This document shows positions 1 through 7,751 of a stretch of DNA of 7,751 nucleotides, one piece after another. Where the stretch lies: the IMG/VR virus record IMGVR_UViG_2690316343_000010. One strand, given 5' to 3'. Source of the DNA: a virus (Duplodnaviria > Heunggongvirae > Uroviricota > Caudoviricetes). The notes beneath the pieces are model-generated. The model saw nothing but the letters and a program-made list of their open reading frames with translations. It did no database searches and was not told the DNA's origin. Positions within the stretch are counted from its first letter, which is position 1; every line of letters starts with the position of its first letter. A program made the position numbers and the translations under genes.

Positions 1-787
<787 letters not shown>

Positions 788-883
788 ATATATATGTATT
801 TTCTCTGTTAAGCGTGAGCTACGTGAAAAATAATTTTTGGTGTGGGTATTAACTTTGCTTTATTCACGTAGAACACCGTTAAA

Positions 884-3064
884 TCATTCTTCCTCTGGAT
901 AGCTTGAACTTAAGAGCATATCCTGCGTGAACTGGTCATTAGCTGATTGATTGAAAGTAAAGAAAGATGGTTCATCTGGTCGAACGACAACTTGACCACC
1001 AAGTGAAACTTTCACTGGCTCCTGAATACGCTTACTCAAAGCACTAATTTCATCCCTCAGACCCTGAATATCTGCACTCGTTAATGCTGAATCTTGCTTA
1101 ATGTTGTTTAACTCTGGATGATTGAATCTTGCAATATTCATTGTGGCATTGTTAAACAATTCACCCATTGAACTAAAAATTCTACTCCATCCTTCGTTAA
1201 TCATATTCGGTTTATTAGGGTCACCAGAATACACGGGATTAAAGTCACTACCCACACCTACCCCAGACGGATGCATATTAGCGTTTTTGACTACTTCCTG
1301 ATTCATAAAATCCAGTGCTTTCTTCAATGCATATAAACCAAGAGTGACGCCTCTGATTTGTGGAATCATTGAAGCTAATGCTAACGCTGTTTCATAACCG
1401 TCATCAGCATAACCAATTGCAAGAGCACTACCTACACCACCAGCTACACCTTTCAGTTTTCCACCACCTTTACCAGTAGCTACCTGACCAGCCACCTGAT
1501 TAGCTCTTGTACCTAACGTTGTGATTGCTCTTGTCAGGTTCATAACCCCTGTAGTAGCACTGAATAGCGTCTTTGCAGATAACGCTATAGCAAGACCTTT
1601 GACGAAGTTGATAAAACCATCACCGACTTCATCAAGTAGTTTTCGTTTAGTGTCATCAAGGCTGTAATAGAACTTCTTAGTCTGTAAAATCCAGCCTTCA
1701 ATGGTGTTATTGAATACGCGAATATCATCTACACCAGCTTTAAGCATGTCGATAAGTCCACCGATAGCATCACCAGCGATAGAAGAACTCATCCCCATTT
1801 CACTAAGCAGGTTACTCAGGCTGGATAAGAAGCCGTTTAGCTCATCCTGTGAACCTGAGAAGATTTTCACCATCGTATCATCCCAATTGTTTGCTAACTT
1901 ACCTAAAGCTGTCTGAGTGCTCTTAGTGACTTCAGCCCAGCCACCCGCTTTATCAATCATCAAGCCCATCTGTTTAGCGACTTTAGGGAGAGTATCAGCG
2001 GAAAGTACCTTCCCGTTTTTCATGGCTGCATCAAGCTCTGTAGCAGTCATACCCAATGCTTCAGCGAATAGCTTAAATGCACCAGCCATACGGTCACCTA
2101 ACTGCCCACGTAATTCCTCAGCCTGAATCTTGCCCTTGCTCGCCATCTGCTCAAATGCTCTCAAAATGCCGTTTAGCTCATCGTTAGAAAGCCCCATTAA
2201 GCGACTCATAGCCGTTGCATTACCAAATAGCTCCTGTGTCTGTTCCTGTGACATAGAACCCTGAGCACCTGCTGCAAACTTAGCGTAGCTTGATAGCCCT
2301 TCAGAGATATTAAGACCTGTCTTGTCTGCTAAATTTCGAATAAATACCTCAGCTTCAGATGCTTTATCACCAAGTACAAACTTAGCGGCTCTCTGTGCGG
2401 AATCTCGTTTAAGACCTGCATTCATAATGGCCTTGTAAGCGTTAAGAGCACCCATCACAGAGTAAAATGCACCAGATAATTTAATCGCATTGCTTGCAAG
2501 ATTATTAAATGCGTCGCTTGTATTGTTAATGCTGGCGGTCTTTGTCTGTGACCTGAGTTTATTCAACGTTTCACGAAGAGATTGATTTAATTTTGCAAGT
2601 TCAGCGTTAAACTTTTCACTTCCAATATTACCAGCCTTACCGCTTAAGCTGTAATACTGTGCTTTAAACATTTTAGCCATCAGCGGATTAATATCACCAA
2701 GCTTAGACATATTCACGCTATGCGCTGCTGTGATTGCTCTGTTTCCGCTAATTCGTGGTTGCCTTGATTGTTTTGGAGGATTAACAGTGTCATTAAATCT
2801 GGTGGCAAACTGAAATGCTTTTGTGCTTCTTGCTCTCTGCTCAATCTTGTCAAAGGTCTTATTAAACTTCCTTTCAAGCTGCCCTAAAGAACTTGTCAGA
2901 TTGCTGTCAAGTTGCTTGGTATCGACCTTAAACGCTCTATTCAAATTGCGTTCAATTCTTTGTGCTGACTGCAAAGCTGCCTTTTCAACTCTTTGCAAGC
3001 CCTTAATAACGTTTTCACTGAAACTAAGTTCAACGATAAAACTATCAACTGTGAATTTGCTCAT
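884..3064 (-). CDS. Phage tail tape measure protein (726 aa)
   Basis: Coiled-coil-like N-terminus, then a segment (GNATAMSRLMGLSNDELNGILRAFEQMASKGKIQAEELRGQLGDRMAGAFKLFAEALGMTATELDAAMKNGKVLSADTLPKVAKQM) that matches my memory of the lambda-H-type tape measure domain, then Gly/Ala-rich hydrophobic segments typical of these proteins. ATG at 3064 with RBS AGAGGTGA upstream. Family call is from motif memory, not a search. Confidence 0.85.
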   Translation of the reverse strand: MSKFTVDSFIVELSFSENVIKGLQRVEKAALQSAQRIERNLNRAFKVDTKQLDSNLTSSLGQLERKFNKTFDKIEQRARSTKAFQFATRFNDTVNPPKQSRQPRISGNRAITAAHSVNMSKLGDINPLMAKMFKAQYYSLSGKAGNIGSEKFNAELAKLNQSLRETLNKLRSQTKTASINNTSDAFNNLASNAIKLSGAFYSVMGALNAYKAIMNAGLKRDSAQRAAKFVLGDKASEAEVFIRNLADKTGLNISEGLSSYAKFAAGAQGSMSQEQTQELFGNATAMSRLMGLSNDELNGILRAFEQMASKGKIQAEELRGQLGDRMAGAFKLFAEALGMTATELDAAMKNGKVLSADTLPKVAKQMGLMIDKAGGWAEVTKSTQTALGKLANNWDDTMVKIFSGSQDELNGFLSSLSNLLSEMGMSSSIAGDAIGGLIDMLKAGVDDIRVFNNTIEGWILQTKKFYYSLDDTKRKLLDEVGDGFINFVKGLAIALSAKTLFSATTGVMNLTRAITTLGTRANQVAGQVATGKGGGKLKGVAGGVGSALAIGYADDGYETALALASMIPQIRGVTLGLYALKKALDFMNQEVVKNANMHPSGVGVGSDFNPVYSGDPNKPNMINEGWSRIFSSMGELFNNATMNIARFNHPELNNIKQDSALTSADIQGLRDEISALSKRIQEPVKVSLGGQVVVRPDEPSFFTFNQSANDQFTQDMLLSSSYPEEE

Positions 3065-3096
3065 TCATGTTTCACCTCTTTAAGTGTTCATATACG

Positions 3097-3393: not shown

Positions 3394-4104
3394 TTAAATA
3401 GCCTTTGCATATTTGCTAGAAATCTTCGTAAGCTGCTCAATATCAGCCTGCATAGCAATCTTCTTAGCATCTTCATATTCTTTCACAAGCTCTTTCATAG
3501 CCTGAAGCTCTCTTGAGAGATACAACTTAACATTATCAAGTTGCTTGTTACGTGATGCCAAGATGTTCTGTCTAGCAATTTCAGCGAGTTCTTCATCGCT
3601 CTTATTAGTCATGTAAATAAACTGACCAGCACCTCTTGATGCCTTAACCATCTTCACAATTCGATGTCCAGCAGGAAGACTACTAATCACGGCTGCGACG
3701 TTTTCTTGAAAAGTACCAAAACCATCATTATCTTCGTATTGGTAATAGACAAATGGTTTCTGTGACAATTCATCCTGAATCTCAAATTCTGACGGCTCAA
3801 TAGCTGATTGCATCAAGGTAACTTTGCTGTAAGCGTCATCTAATCTAAGGCGCTGTTCTTTCAGCAGTTGGTAATATTTCTTTTCAAGCTCAAGTAATGC
3901 TTCACTCTTGCAAATATCAGGCATCTCTTGAGGCTCAGGAGACACAAAGATGGTTGTTTTTGGTGACATCTTTAGCGATTGCTCAAGCTCAATACGCTTG
4001 TCATGCTCTTTACGCTGAATAGTGATAGCTGGATGTTCAGTCTGTGGCGACCAGTCACTGAAGCTATCAATCACTTTGCCATTAATGTAAATATCATTTG
4101 TCAT
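3394..4104 (-). CDS. Hypothetical protein (236 aa from ATG 4104; ORF track extends to a GTG at 4152)
   Basis: ATG at 4104 is preceded by GAGGAAAAG with a 7-nt spacer. Coiled-coil-rich C-terminus. Function not recognised; sits just upstream of the tape measure. Confidence 0.6.
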   Translation of the reverse strand: MTNDIYINGKVIDSFSDWSPQTEHPAITIQRKEHDKRIELEQSLKMSPKTTIFVSPEPQEMPDICKSEALLELEKKYYQLLKEQRLRLDDAYSKVTLMQSAIEPSEFEIQDELSQKPFVYYQYEDNDGFGTFQENVAAVISSLPAGHRIVKMVKASRGAGQFIYMTNKSDEELAEIARQNILASRNKQLDNVKLYLSRELQAMKELVKEYEDAKKIAMQADIEQLTKISSKYAKAI

Positions 4105-6072: not shown

Positions 6073-6159
6073 CTGGTGGCCTTACCGGCACTTTCCCTTG
6101 ATAATATTGGTGGCCCTCAGATTACCGGGGTCACCGTCTTTTAATCGTAGCTGGTGGAC
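6070..6159 (+). repeat. Cluster of Chi-like octamers: GCTGGTGG at 6072-6079 and 6150-6157, plus a partial copy attGGTGG at 6106-6113
   Basis: Exact matches to the E. coli-type Chi sequence 5'-GCTGGTGG-3', all in the same orientation on the plus strand. I found no other copy in the window on either strand. The three copies also form direct repeats (agcTGGTGGcc, attGGTGGccc, agcTGGTGGac). Confidence 0.5.
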
Positions 6160-6378
6160 TGAATCCCATAAATCGTAATGATACAGCACCGCAAACTTCA
6201 AAGCGTCAATCTTTAAATCTGTCACATCATCGACGAAATAATAATCCCTCCCTTCTTTCTTCGGTCGAATCCGGTAAACTTCCCCGTGAGTATCTTTCAT
6301 CAAGTAACCTTCACGAGAAATGCTGTAACGTCTGAGTAAATAGTCACGGTATTTTCTCTCGCCATTATAAGTTTTCAT
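6082..6378 (-). CDS. Hypothetical protein (98 aa), translationally coupled to the replication initiator
   Basis: ATG 6378..6376 overlaps the TAA stop of the upstream gene (TAATG) and has a GGAGGA SD. No recognisable domain. Confidence 0.6.
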   Translation of the reverse strand: MKTYNGERKYRDYLLRRYSISREGYLMKDTHGEVYRIRPKKEGRDYYFVDDVTDLKIDALKFAVLYHYDLWDSVHQLRLKDGDPGNLRATNIIKGKCR

Positions 6379-7331
6379 TAAAACATTCCTCCACCATAAA
6401 CACGTCTGACTTTAACTTTTTCTTTCTTTGGCTCGGTGTGAGTTTTCTTTTTTGGTGTAAAAGTAAAATCATCGTCACTATCATCAAAGTCATCGAGGTC
6501 ACTAACCTTGTTCTTTAGCTTCGCATTTCTGAATCTTTCTTTAATTTCTGCTTTACGCTGTTCACGTTTCAATTCCTTTTCAGGGTCTTCTTCATCATCA
6601 AGGTCAACATCCGGTAATTCATCATCAGTGGCGGGGCACTGTGTGTTTTTATGGTCACTACTAGCAATCACATCAGAGATTTTATCTTCCTTTTTAACGA
6701 CCTCTTTAGCAGCTTCACTATCAAGGTCATCTAAGTCAGATGTTTTAACAGTCTCTTTAATAGCCTCTTCAATACCAAGAGAATCACATTCATGTGAATC
6801 ACAGAGCGAAGCTCCCTTCTTAAAATATTCTTCTTCAAAGTCATCTTCTTTATTGTTATTAATAAGTTCTTTCTTGTTATTACTGTTATTATACGTGTCA
6901 AAGATTTTGACTGACTGAGTAAAAAATTTTGACTCAGTGGGTAAAGAATTTTGACTCAGTGGGTCATCTTTCTTGACTGACTGAGTAACTTTAGACTCCA
7001 GCTTTGCCTTTCTGGCTTCCTTAGCTGTAAGCTCTGTTAAAACCTCCGGTACTTCATCAAGTGAATAAACTTTAATAACACACTGATTGCTTGCAACGTT
7101 AGTTTTCTTGATTAAACCATGTGCCTCAAGTTGTTTCATACATGCAATCACGGATGTTCTTGTGATTCCAGCATACTGACCAAGATGAGCATATGAAGGG
7201 GTATAATATTGCCCCTTATCGTGATAAAACTTTTGTTCATTCAACATGACAGTGTAAATAATACGGTCGGCAGCTTTAACGCCATTAGTCATCTGATAAA
7301 TACGGTCATCAAACATGTGGAATTTTTCCAT
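6378..7331 (-). CDS. Lambda-O-like replication initiator / replisome organiser (317 aa from ATG 7331)
   Basis: ATG 7331 has an AAAGGA RBS; the ORF-track start at 7388 is a TTG lying inside a terminator hairpin. The N-terminal 100 aa (for example AHLGQYAGITRTSVIACMKQLEAHGLIKK) resembles the winged-helix DNA-binding domain of phage O-type initiators. Four phased iterons and an AT-rich tract lie inside the gene, encoding the inter-domain linker, as in lambda ori. The C-terminal half is low-complexity and rich in Asp, Glu and Lys. Confidence 0.7.
   Translation of the reverse strand: MEKFHMFDDRIYQMTNGVKAADRIIYTVMLNEQKFYHDKGQYYTPSYAHLGQYAGITRTSVIACMKQLEAHGLIKKTNVASNQCVIKVYSLDEVPEVLTELTAKEARKAKLESKVTQSVKKDDPLSQNSLPTESKFFTQSVKIFDTYNNSNNKKELINNNKEDDFEEEYFKKGASLCDSHECDSLGIEEAIKETVKTSDLDDLDSEAAKEVVKKEDKISDVIASSDHKNTQCPATDDELPDVDLDDEEDPEKELKREQRKAEIKERFRNAKLKNKVSDLDDFDDSDDDFTFTPKKKTHTEPKKEKVKVRRVYGGGMF
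6841..6896 (-). other. AT-rich tract flanking the iterons (candidate DNA-unwinding element)
   Basis: Strongly AT-rich stretch with three copies of TGTTATT, lying directly downstream of the iterons in the direction of gene transcription. This is the same order as in lambda ori (iterons, then AT-rich region). Confidence 0.4.
6905..6988 (-). repeat. Four 18-bp iterons with 22-bp phasing (putative initiator binding sites of an intragenic replication origin)
   Basis: R1 6905-6922 ttttgactgactgagtaa, R2 6927-6944 ttttgactcagtgggtaa, R3 6949-6966 ttttgactcagtgggtca, R4 6971-6988 tcttgactgactgagtaa. Two sequence types in A-B-B-A order; the type-A core ACTGAGT is the reverse complement of the type-B core ACTCAGT. 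Confidence 0.65.
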
Positions 7332-7344
7332 TATATTTTCCTTT

Positions 7345-7391
7345 TTAAAAATAAAACAAAGAAAGGGCTGACCACGTATAGTGACCAACCC
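7345..7391 (-). terminator. Strand-specific intrinsic-terminator-like hairpin plus U-tract immediately upstream of the replication initiator RBS
   Basis: In minus-strand RNA, GGGUUGGUCAC (7391..7381) pairs with GUGGUCAGCCC (7375..7365): 8 Watson-Crick and 3 G-U pairs, 5-nt loop, followed by UUUCUUUGUUUUAUUUUU (7364..7345). On the plus strand the equivalent positions are C-A and A-C mismatches, so the structure is specific to the minus transcript. Confidence 0.35.
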
Positions 7392-7486
7392 CAGAGGGAG
7401 TGAATTAATTAGAAGATGGACTGATAAAGGAACTCAGAAGCCTGAGCGATTACGCGAGTATTAACAGCAAAAGGAAAAGCCTTGAT

Positions 7487-7514
7487 TGAATAAGAGGCCG
7501 TGAAAATCTGTCAA
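7487..7514 (-). promoter_or_regulatory. Possible sigma70-like promoter for the replication operon
   Basis: Minus strand: perfect -35 TTGACA (7514..7509), 16-nt spacer, weak -10 TATTCA (7492..7487). It lies about 160 nt upstream of the rep gene and directly abuts the assembly gap. Confidence 0.2.
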
Positions 7515-7521
7515 TACCCTG

Positions 7522-7614
7522 NNNNNNNNNNNNNNNNNNNNNNNNNNNNNNNNNNNNNNNNNNNNNNNNNNNNNNNNNNNNNNNNNNNNNNNNNNNNNNN
7601 NNNNNNNNNNNNNN
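7522..7614. other. Run of 93 N (scaffold or assembly gap)
   Basis: Literal n characters in the sequence. The ORF-track entries 7450..7659 and 7511..7702 span it and are artefacts. Confidence 0.95.
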
Positions 7615-7751
7615 CCTCCCAACGTTGTAACCTCTTAATGTTCTGAGTTCTTTTATCACCCCATATAAAAACTATAACAGATGTGATTATAAATTGCAAC
7701 AATTATTTCACAGAATAATTACTGATTGGTCATTTATTGTTCACAGGGATA

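Follow-up and report, generated by a model that had tools for sequence, protein, structure and literature searches.

A probable replication origin embedded in the initiator gene of a phage-satellite-like island of Escherichia coli and Shigella

A viral DNA stretch of 7,751 nucleotides (Caudoviricetes; IMG/VR record IMGVR_UViG_2690316343_000010; hereafter, the window) contains a gene for a putative replication initiator that carries, midway through its coding sequence (CDS), four evenly spaced repeats next to an AT-rich tract. Is this segment a replication origin, or do the repeats serve another end? An interpretation made earlier from the nucleotide letters alone (the sequence-only reading) had proposed an iteron-plus-AT-rich origin lying within the gene of its own initiator, and comparison of related islands indicates that this is very probably so. 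Specifically, positions 6842-6989 most likely constitute the vegetative replication origin of an ~11-kb integrative, phage-satellite-like island of E. coli and Shigella. The layout of an intragenic iteron origin is already known from phage lambda and RepA_N plasmids; new are the assignment of the initiator to the RepA_N/PLE fold, the existence of three exchangeable specificity cassettes, and an explanation of the iteron variants by codon phase.

A repeat search of the window revealed four copies of a 22-nt unit at 6897-6984 with start-to-start spacings of 22, 22 and 22, and Tandem Repeats Finder (TRF) reported an array with a period of 22 (score 95). Exact matches to the degenerate 16-nt motif TTGACTSASTGRGTMA occur at 6907, 6929, 6951 and 6973 and nowhere else in the 7.7-kb window; with up to two mismatches allowed on both strands, seven matches were counted against 0.07 expected. 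Within a homologous 43.7-kb E. coli locus, the motif is again confined to the array. A periodic statistic, defined as the summed matches between successive 16-mers over four equally spaced copies, reached 41 of 48, as compared to 24.4 ± 1.4 (maximum 30) in 1000 dinucleotide-preserving shuffles of the gene. The array lies in the linker-coding part of the gene (codons 115-144, encoding VTQSVKKDDPLSQNSLPTESKFFTQSVKIF) and comprises two forms, A (TTGACTGACTGAGTAA, at 6907 and 6973) and B (TTGACTCAGTGGGTMA, at 6929 and 6951), whose heptamers ACTGAGT and ACTCAGT are reverse complements of each other. The sequence-only reading had thus described the array accurately, both as four repeats recurring every 22 bp inside the linker-coding part of the initiator CDS and as two forms with reverse-complementary heptamers in the order A-B-B-A. 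Each of these sites (type I, see below) is a 17-bp pseudo-palindrome of the form TTGAC-N7-GTMAA with 10-12 of 16 positions self-complementary, and the motif matches both strands; palindromic iterons of this kind would be consistent with binding by a protein dimer.

The tract adjoining the iterons, a putative DNA-unwinding element, has a GC content of 0.18 at 6843-6892, tied for the lowest of any 50-nt segment in the 7.7 kb (overall GC 0.39). It encodes the low-complexity stretch DTYNNSNNKKELINNNKEDD and carries three TGTTATTA motifs (6854, 6875 and 6884), in agreement with the three short repeats noticed there earlier. The number of such short AT-rich repeats varies, since a related locus (L013; 1495-2484, NZ_CP027325) carries two extra TAATAACAG units at the equivalent of window 6880-6895, an in-frame gain of 18 bp that adds NSNNSN.

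The origin reading draws good support from related islands. Chromosomal islands of E. coli match the window at ~90% identity; a 4.5-kb query was matched in 498 of 5426 complete genomes, and the C-terminal part of the initiator gene alone in 150. The initiators of 17 E. coli island loci, which formed the comparison set, share a common C-terminal half and fall into three N-domain types (37-44% identity to the N-domain of the window). Each type has four repeats of its own unrelated sequence and encoded peptide, the first at codon 115-118 and the spacing 22-23 bp: on the gene strand, the iteron reads TTAC[T/C]CA[G/C]T[C/G]AGTCAA in type I (the window), AACCAGAATTTGGTT in type II and GTGACAAAATGTCAC in type III. 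Downstream in the direction of transcription, every type possesses a tract with a GC content of 0.23-0.24 and short repeats of its own, namely three copies of TAATAACA, two of AATACTGAA or four of TAGATAA. In blastn alignments of the window, homology stops at 6841 against type II islands and at 6793 against type III islands, to resume at 7615 and 7651, respectively, and many of the matches in E. coli genomes end at query position 3842, which is window position 6841. Given these breakpoints, the AT-rich tract, iterons, N-domain and leader constitute one cassette of ~770 bp that moves between islands as a whole (Table 1). Such co-variation is exactly what would be expected if the N-domain recognised the repeats. 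The sequence-only reading had left room for repeats conserved at the protein level alone; what homologues with other N-domains keep is four intragenic DNA repeats phased at 22-23 bp, and not the peptide.

Table 1. Features of the putative origin and of the gene that contains it (positions in the window).
Feature	Position	Strand	Details	Basis
Exchangeable specificity cassette (AT-rich tract, iterons, N-domain coding region, 5' leader)	6842-7614		Conserved sequence on both flanks	blastn breakpoints
Initiator gene	6378-7331	minus	317 aa	Open reading frame and translation
Coding region of the C-terminal half (putative replisome-recruiting domain)	6378-6841	minus	Common to all three cassette types	Protein alignment of types
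AT-rich tract (putative DNA-unwinding element)	6842-6900		Codons 146-164	GC, repeat motifs
Iteron 4 in gene order, type A	6907-6923	minus	Plus strand TTGACTGACTGAGTAAA; codon phase 1; encodes FTQSVK	
Iteron 3 in gene order, type B	6929-6945	minus	Plus strand TTGACTCAGTGGGTAAA; codon phase 0; encodes LPTESK	
Iteron 2 in gene order, type B	6951-6967	minus	Plus strand TTGACTCAGTGGGTCAT; codon phase 2; encodes DDPLSQ	
Iteron 1 in gene order, type A	6973-6989	minus	Plus strand TTGACTGACTGAGTAAC; codon phase 1; encodes VTQSVK	
Coding region of the N-terminal winged-helix (putative iteron-binding) domain	6990-7331	minus	aa 1-114	
Type-specific leader	7332-7699	minus	~340 nt	Consensus scans, alignment with homologues

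Naturally occurring variants fit an iteron array prone to slippage. In one type I locus (L008; 1501-2447, NZ_CP042298), exactly one 22-bp iteron has been lost and the frame is shifted, the gene being labelled 'frameshifted' in RefSeq; judged from this sequence, the array is prone to unit loss, which the intragenic position of the origin makes lethal for the gene. Two more distant relatives of the N-domain (P0134 and P0138; 33-42% identity) have in-frame tandem peptide repeats in the linker (VSPEDTGEVSPEDT and two copies of TPLKAxxYTSQST), suggesting, at the protein level, that iterons lie within the gene there too, their period being divisible by three. A decayed island copy beside lafU in strain NGF1 (L017; 1367-2403, NZ_CP016007) keeps a baseplate gene fragment and a type III initiator only.

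What kind of protein would act at these sites? The initiator consists of an N-terminal winged-helix domain (aa ~1-113), a linker (aa ~114-165) and a C-terminal half of acidic/basic character. In a PHROG search, residues 9-168 hit several families labelled 'replication initiation protein' or 'replication initiation O-like' (best E = 2e-10). A Pfam scan of the initiator returned weak, sub-threshold matches to winged-helix/helix-turn-helix (HTH) and DnaD_N models alone (DnaD_N, E = 0.005), an NCBIfam scan gave no informative match, and for the C-terminal half no family match was obtained in Pfam, PHROG or NCBIfam scans. An identical protein in Shigella sonnei is annotated merely as an HTH-domain protein, and the ~2400 close homologues in Escherichia, Shigella and Salmonella go by the public name 'helix-turn-helix domain-containing protein' only. 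The N-domain family is narrow, as an exhaustive search with residues 1-150 against 1.8 billion cluster representatives returned only 20 clusters at E ≤ 1e-3, and no deep alignment could be built for predicting its structure. The N-domain was modelled from a 3-sequence alignment with a predicted local distance difference test (pLDDT) score of 76, i.e. moderate confidence. The best structural match of this model was the RepA_N initiator (RepA) of the Vibrio satellite PLE (PDB 4RO3), and the domain is predicted to adopt the winged-helix fold of RepA_N proteins and the DnaD N-terminal domain.

The full initiator had no tblastn match in phages or plasmids; the three N-domains, searched by tblastn against phages (50,697 records), had no match in a coliphage (no Odn-like counterpart) and a weak one in a Parageobacillus phage for types II and III (E = 3e-4 and 6e-6). 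Back-translated patterns from the initiator alignment, which stemmed from the low-complexity C-terminus, gave a spurious Glycomyces match alone in genome contigs and none in viral contigs. Within the C-terminal ~60 aa (6378-6560), a strongly acidic segment, DLDDFDDSDDDFTF, precedes a basic tail that does not vary, KKKTHTEPKKEKVKVRRVYGGG. The acidic motif may resemble the C-terminal tip of SSB (DFDDDIPF), which docks replication proteins.

The sequence-only reading had likened the locus to ori-lambda and the protein to lambda O. Ori-lambda consists of iterons and an AT-rich tract in the middle of gene O, each 19-bp iteron being an imperfect inverted repeat (PMC7466680). Measured in the same way as the window, lambda (J02459) has four O-binding iterons starting at O codons 117, 123, 131 and 139 of 299, spaced at 20, 24 and 23 bp, and a tract with a GC content of 0.23 directly downstream. 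The two loci thus agree in the position of the origin midway through the initiator gene, in the four imperfectly palindromic iterons (codons 117-145 of 299 in lambda, 115-143 of 317 here) and in the AT-rich tract immediately downstream in the direction of transcription. Remote PHROG matches are also held in common: those of the window protein include phrog_678, 345 and 391, which lambda O matches too, and the type II and III proteins match PHROG 678 and 18020, likewise matched by lambda O. In contrast to the irregular spacing in lambda, the spacing here is exactly 22 bp. Moreover, BLASTP detected no similarity between the initiator and O (E = 2.4), the C-terminal half showed none to that of O, and whereas lambda O itself matches TIGR01610 at 5e-39, the window protein and those of types II and III do not at E ≤ 0.1. 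Nor is there a recognisable P-like helicase-loader gene downstream: the 98-aa open reading frame (ORF) that follows (6082-6378) and the other island ORFs had no match to loaders or helicases in Pfam or PHROG, and the element is not a lambdoid phage. The comparison with lambda therefore stands as far as the layout goes (codon positions, AT-rich tract) and fails for O family membership; the protein is not a member of that family, and its modelled fold places it with RepA_N/PLE instead.

The closer match is a RepA_N replicon. In the 319-aa Rep of plasmid pSK41, an N-terminal domain (residues 1-120) recognises four Rep boxes in the middle of the rep gene, a central domain (121-199) is encoded by the origin and dispensable as protein, and a C-terminal domain that is conserved within the host genus contacts primase (PMC5703833). 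Plasmid pPR9 even represents a natural swap of the N-terminal domain together with the origin (PMC5703833). The island initiator has the same succession of N-domain, origin-holding linker with four boxes, and C-terminal domain. RepA_N iterons have been described as semi-palindromic direct repeats converging on an A-tract, and the RepA of PLE was placed in the RepA_N family by structure, not by sequence (PMC7145576). Iterons of type II (AACCAAAAATTGGTT) and type III (GTGACAAAATGTCAC) fit this description exactly and those of type I only in part: they are semi-palindromic, but have a 7-bp centre of TCAGTGG or TGACTGA, with A/T runs lying between the sites. The replicon further differs from RepA_N plasmids such as pSK41 and pTZ2162 in lacking a PF06970 match, in its gammaproteobacterial host, in being an integrated island rather than a plasmid, and in a C-terminal domain that is unrelated, acidic and of low complexity with a basic tail.

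Co-variation, dyad symmetry and fold together suggest that the N-terminal winged-helix domain (RepA_N/DnaD-like) would bind as dimers to the four 17-bp iterons, whose 22-bp phasing, about two helical turns, would align them along the same side of the helix. On the model of lambda and RepA_N replicons, the resulting nucleoprotein complex may bend the DNA and open the adjacent AT-rich tract. The conserved C-terminal half would then recruit helicase and/or primase, for which the island has no recognisable genes; the host would provide them or, as in the case of the Vibrio satellite PLE, a helper phage, here probably of the Felix O1-like kind. As in lambda, transcription of the initiator gene would pass through the origin, and any contribution of it to activation is speculative. 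An origin that must also code for protein would, in addition, have its iteron sequence constrained by the reading frame.

Several observations weigh against an intragenic RepA_N-type origin. Pfam and PHROG scans of the island ORFs detected no recognisable helicase, primase or loader, so that autonomous replication cannot be assumed. At E ≤ 0.1, the initiator matched neither the RepA_N model PF06970 nor the curated O models TIGR01610 and PF04492 (Phage_rep_O), and its structural assignment depends on a model of moderate confidence built from three sequences. The type I iteron is without the central A-tract typical of RepA_N iterons, and the AT-richness of the tract is modest in absolute terms, the whole island being only 39% GC. 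Finally, polymorphism within types amounts to ~5-6% in the arrays, about equal to that of N-domain coding DNA, among few independent sequences; in this small sample, the iterons appear to have no clear excess of conservation over the flanking coding DNA.

The repeats might, then, be N-domain binding sites with a regulatory role, be it in autoregulation of the initiator gene or as a roadblock to its transcription, in copy-number handcuffing or incompatibility, or as recognition sites for partition or packaging, with the true origin elsewhere in the island. Plasmid iterons often double as copy-control and autorepression sites. A case in point is pSK639, where iterons act in copy control and autorepression (PMC5703833); the origin used by the RepA of PLE, unlike the one proposed here, lies in a non-coding region and not in repA (PMC7145576). 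An E. coli satellite of a different type (L020, NZ_CP016007) has an origin of equal format that is nonetheless intergenic, with an array (14453-14572; 3.6 copies of the 23-bp unit TAACAGAATTCTGTGGGGGTGTC, with a palindromic core) beside AT-rich 12-bp repeats, within a ~2-kb region devoid of ORFs of at least 80 aa. We nonetheless regard a purely regulatory role as unlikely. No further copy of the motif exists in the window or in the whole homologous island, and window repeat scans (including TRF) found no second comparable array. Moreover, in each of the three types the array borders directly on an AT-rich tract that changes along with it, something for which a mere operator would have no use, and the sites match those of two proven intragenic origins, lambda and pSK41, in position and number.

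A distinct question concerns the A-B-B-A order, from which the sequence-only reading had derived outer and inner sites bound in opposite orientations. A simpler explanation is offered by the reading frame. Owing to the 22-bp period, successive sites fall into codon phases 1, 2, 0 and 1 and are read in three frames into different peptides; selection for their similarity therefore acts on the DNA, and the repeats are signals of the DNA rather than of the protein. Sites 1 and 4 are in one phase, since 3 × 22 = 66; form B placed in that phase reads FTH*VK, with a TGA stop, whereas form A is stop-free in all phases. The A-B-B-A order is hence accounted for by the shared phase of sites 1 and 4, where B would create a stop. 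The same rule applies to type III, in which the consensus palindrome, set in the phase of iteron 1, gives V*QNVT; of the four, iteron 1 is the only degenerate one (AAGACAAAATGACAC). Codon phase dictating iteron variants is therefore a testable rule that makes the model of opposite orientations unnecessary.

That model, which strikes us as quite improbable, holds that outer A and inner B sites differ in function, are bound in opposite orientations and would build a symmetric head-to-head complex important for opening the origin or for its directionality. It can point to the exact reverse complementarity of the central heptamers, to the alignment of A with flipped B in register (12-13 of 17 positions), to the retention of A-B-B-A in three type I relatives (L001, L006 and L013), and to the preferential binding of the inner two iterons in lambda (PMC7466680). 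However, direct alignment of A with B is as good or better (12-14 of 17), codon phase together with avoidance of TGA fully predicts the pattern and also covers the degeneracy of iteron 1 in type III, and A-B-B-A symmetry is absent from types II and III. Flipped B would avoid the stop as well, and with all four sites being pseudo-palindromes, sequence alone leaves their orientation undecided, a matter that would be nearly moot for a dimer on a dyad-symmetric site. An argument against inverted heptamers from their uneven spacing (18, 22 and 27 bp) was dropped, as A is close to flipped B in register about a common 17-bp centre.

It is scarcely credible that the periodic repeat merely reflects slippage during replication or a repetitive linker peptide and has no role as DNA. 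The region does encode a low-complexity linker and unit number varies naturally (-22 bp in L008, +18 bp in L013), but the period of 22 is indivisible by 3 and the units are translated in three frames. Three repeat sequences unrelated to one another share one position, copy number and phasing, loss of one unit destroys the reading frame, and the shuffle test excludes chance.

If the intragenic origin is real, the DNA-binding domain and its sites would be forced to be inherited as a unit, and the reading frame would visibly shape iteron sequence via stop avoidance. For annotation, a widespread 'helix-turn-helix' protein of E. coli and Shigella, encoded by an island present in hundreds of genomes, would become a replication initiator with a located putative origin. 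The RepA_N/PLE-type replicon with an intragenic origin, a layout so far characterised in Firmicute plasmids, would be extended to enterobacterial islands. Three N-domain/iteron cassettes on one C-terminal domain would amount to a natural experiment for initiator-iteron specificity and incompatibility, and the cassettes could serve as orthogonal, compact replicons.

Which element, then, would this origin replicate? Two complete loci (L001, 14539-25734, and L002, 1300-12464) define an island of ~11.2 kb with the gene content of a PLE-like satellite. According to RefSeq annotation, its genes are arranged in the order recombinase-family protein (507-547 aa), baseplate protein, tape measure, small unknown ORFs, initiator and DNA N-6-adenine methyltransferase, and it is inserted in yecE, beside wrbA or near tonB. 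DNA homologous to the island is present in about 9% of the complete genomes of E. coli. The part of the island within window positions 1-3085 (minus strand) includes a fragment of a baseplate-like gene (~1-760) and the tape-measure gene (884-3064), segments of which are 74-95% identical at the nucleotide level to Felix O1-like phages (Felixounavirus). The matching segments correspond to the gene after the tape measure (268-703), the junction of these two genes (869-912), the 5' end of the tape-measure gene (2930-3073) and a stretch internal to it (2010-2158), while the tape-measure protein as a whole is only ~30% identical to its Felixounavirus counterpart. Judged from its genes, the island resembles a satellite that brings a tape measure and one baseplate protein of its own, both with ends that would fit a helper.

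A second feature, shared with phage garuso, is the near-total absence of GATC. The window has a single GATC site (10-13) against 24 ± 5 expected, the two complete 11.2-kb islands have none against 35-37 expected, and 49.8 kb of Felixounavirus garuso (L021; 36000-85798) have none against 141 expected, whereas counts are normal in the flanking chromosome and in the unrelated satellite L020. The GC content is 0.39 in both the island and phage garuso. Tail-gene identity, common GC content and absence of GATC together point, indirectly, to a putative satellite-helper relationship with Felix O1-like phages. Even so, a gene for a DNA N-6-adenine methyltransferase lies beside that of the initiator in this GATC-free island. 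Control of the origin by Dam and SeqA through GATC clusters, as at oriC and in P1, was considered and rejected, as the origin contains no GATC site and the island hardly any.

Barth, Dunham and Seed (2023; NAR Genom Bioinform, PMC10448857) reported 224 putative E. coli satellites that carry tape-measure and baseplate genes together with RepA_N initiators whose N-domains are modular (PMC10055350). The present island resembles them in gene order (recombinase, baseplate, tape measure, small genes, replication module), in the modular N-domain of its initiator and in being an E. coli island of ~11-13 kb. However, four of five checked loci of this island family are absent from the table of Barth et al., and the entry for NGF1 is at a different genomic position; the NGF1 genome also holds an unrelated satellite of the type described by these authors (L020) at another site, in which tblastn with the window proteins gave no match. 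A description of this exact island family was not found in the literature, and the surrounding GATC-free, Felix O1-like-phage-associated island may be the more novel object. As a wider picture, for which we claim somewhat less than an even chance, the window could derive from an undescribed family of satellites of Felix O1-like virulent phages, in which a PLE-like RepA fires an intragenic origin with replisome parts of the helper or host, and at least three interchangeable ~770-bp cassettes have arisen through an arms race between phage and satellite over the origin (e.g. ICP1 Odn-like nucleases) or through incompatibility of co-resident islands. The origin locus would be a place to watch for mobilisation of the island by Felix O1-like phages, employed as biocontrol agents against Salmonella and E. 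coli.

Upstream of the initiator gene, the leader, whose sequence differs between cassette types up to 7614, contains a promoter-like site (7699-7671) and two terminator-like hairpins (7447-7432 and 7392-7364), as called by consensus scans only. The second hairpin has a 12-bp stem followed by a T-run and ends 33 nt before the ATG. By analogy with pSK41-type replicons, the initiator may be controlled by attenuation or by an antisense mechanism in a manner specific to each type; in an Rfam scan, the window yielded nothing credible and the leader no match. A run of 93 undetermined bases within the leader (N; 7523-7615) corresponds to just three bases (ACG) in the closest homologues (L001, L006 and L013). 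Judged from this alignment, the run is an assembly gap, a masked stretch or a masked insertion, rather than a loss of conserved sequence. Homology between cassette types resumes at its right edge.

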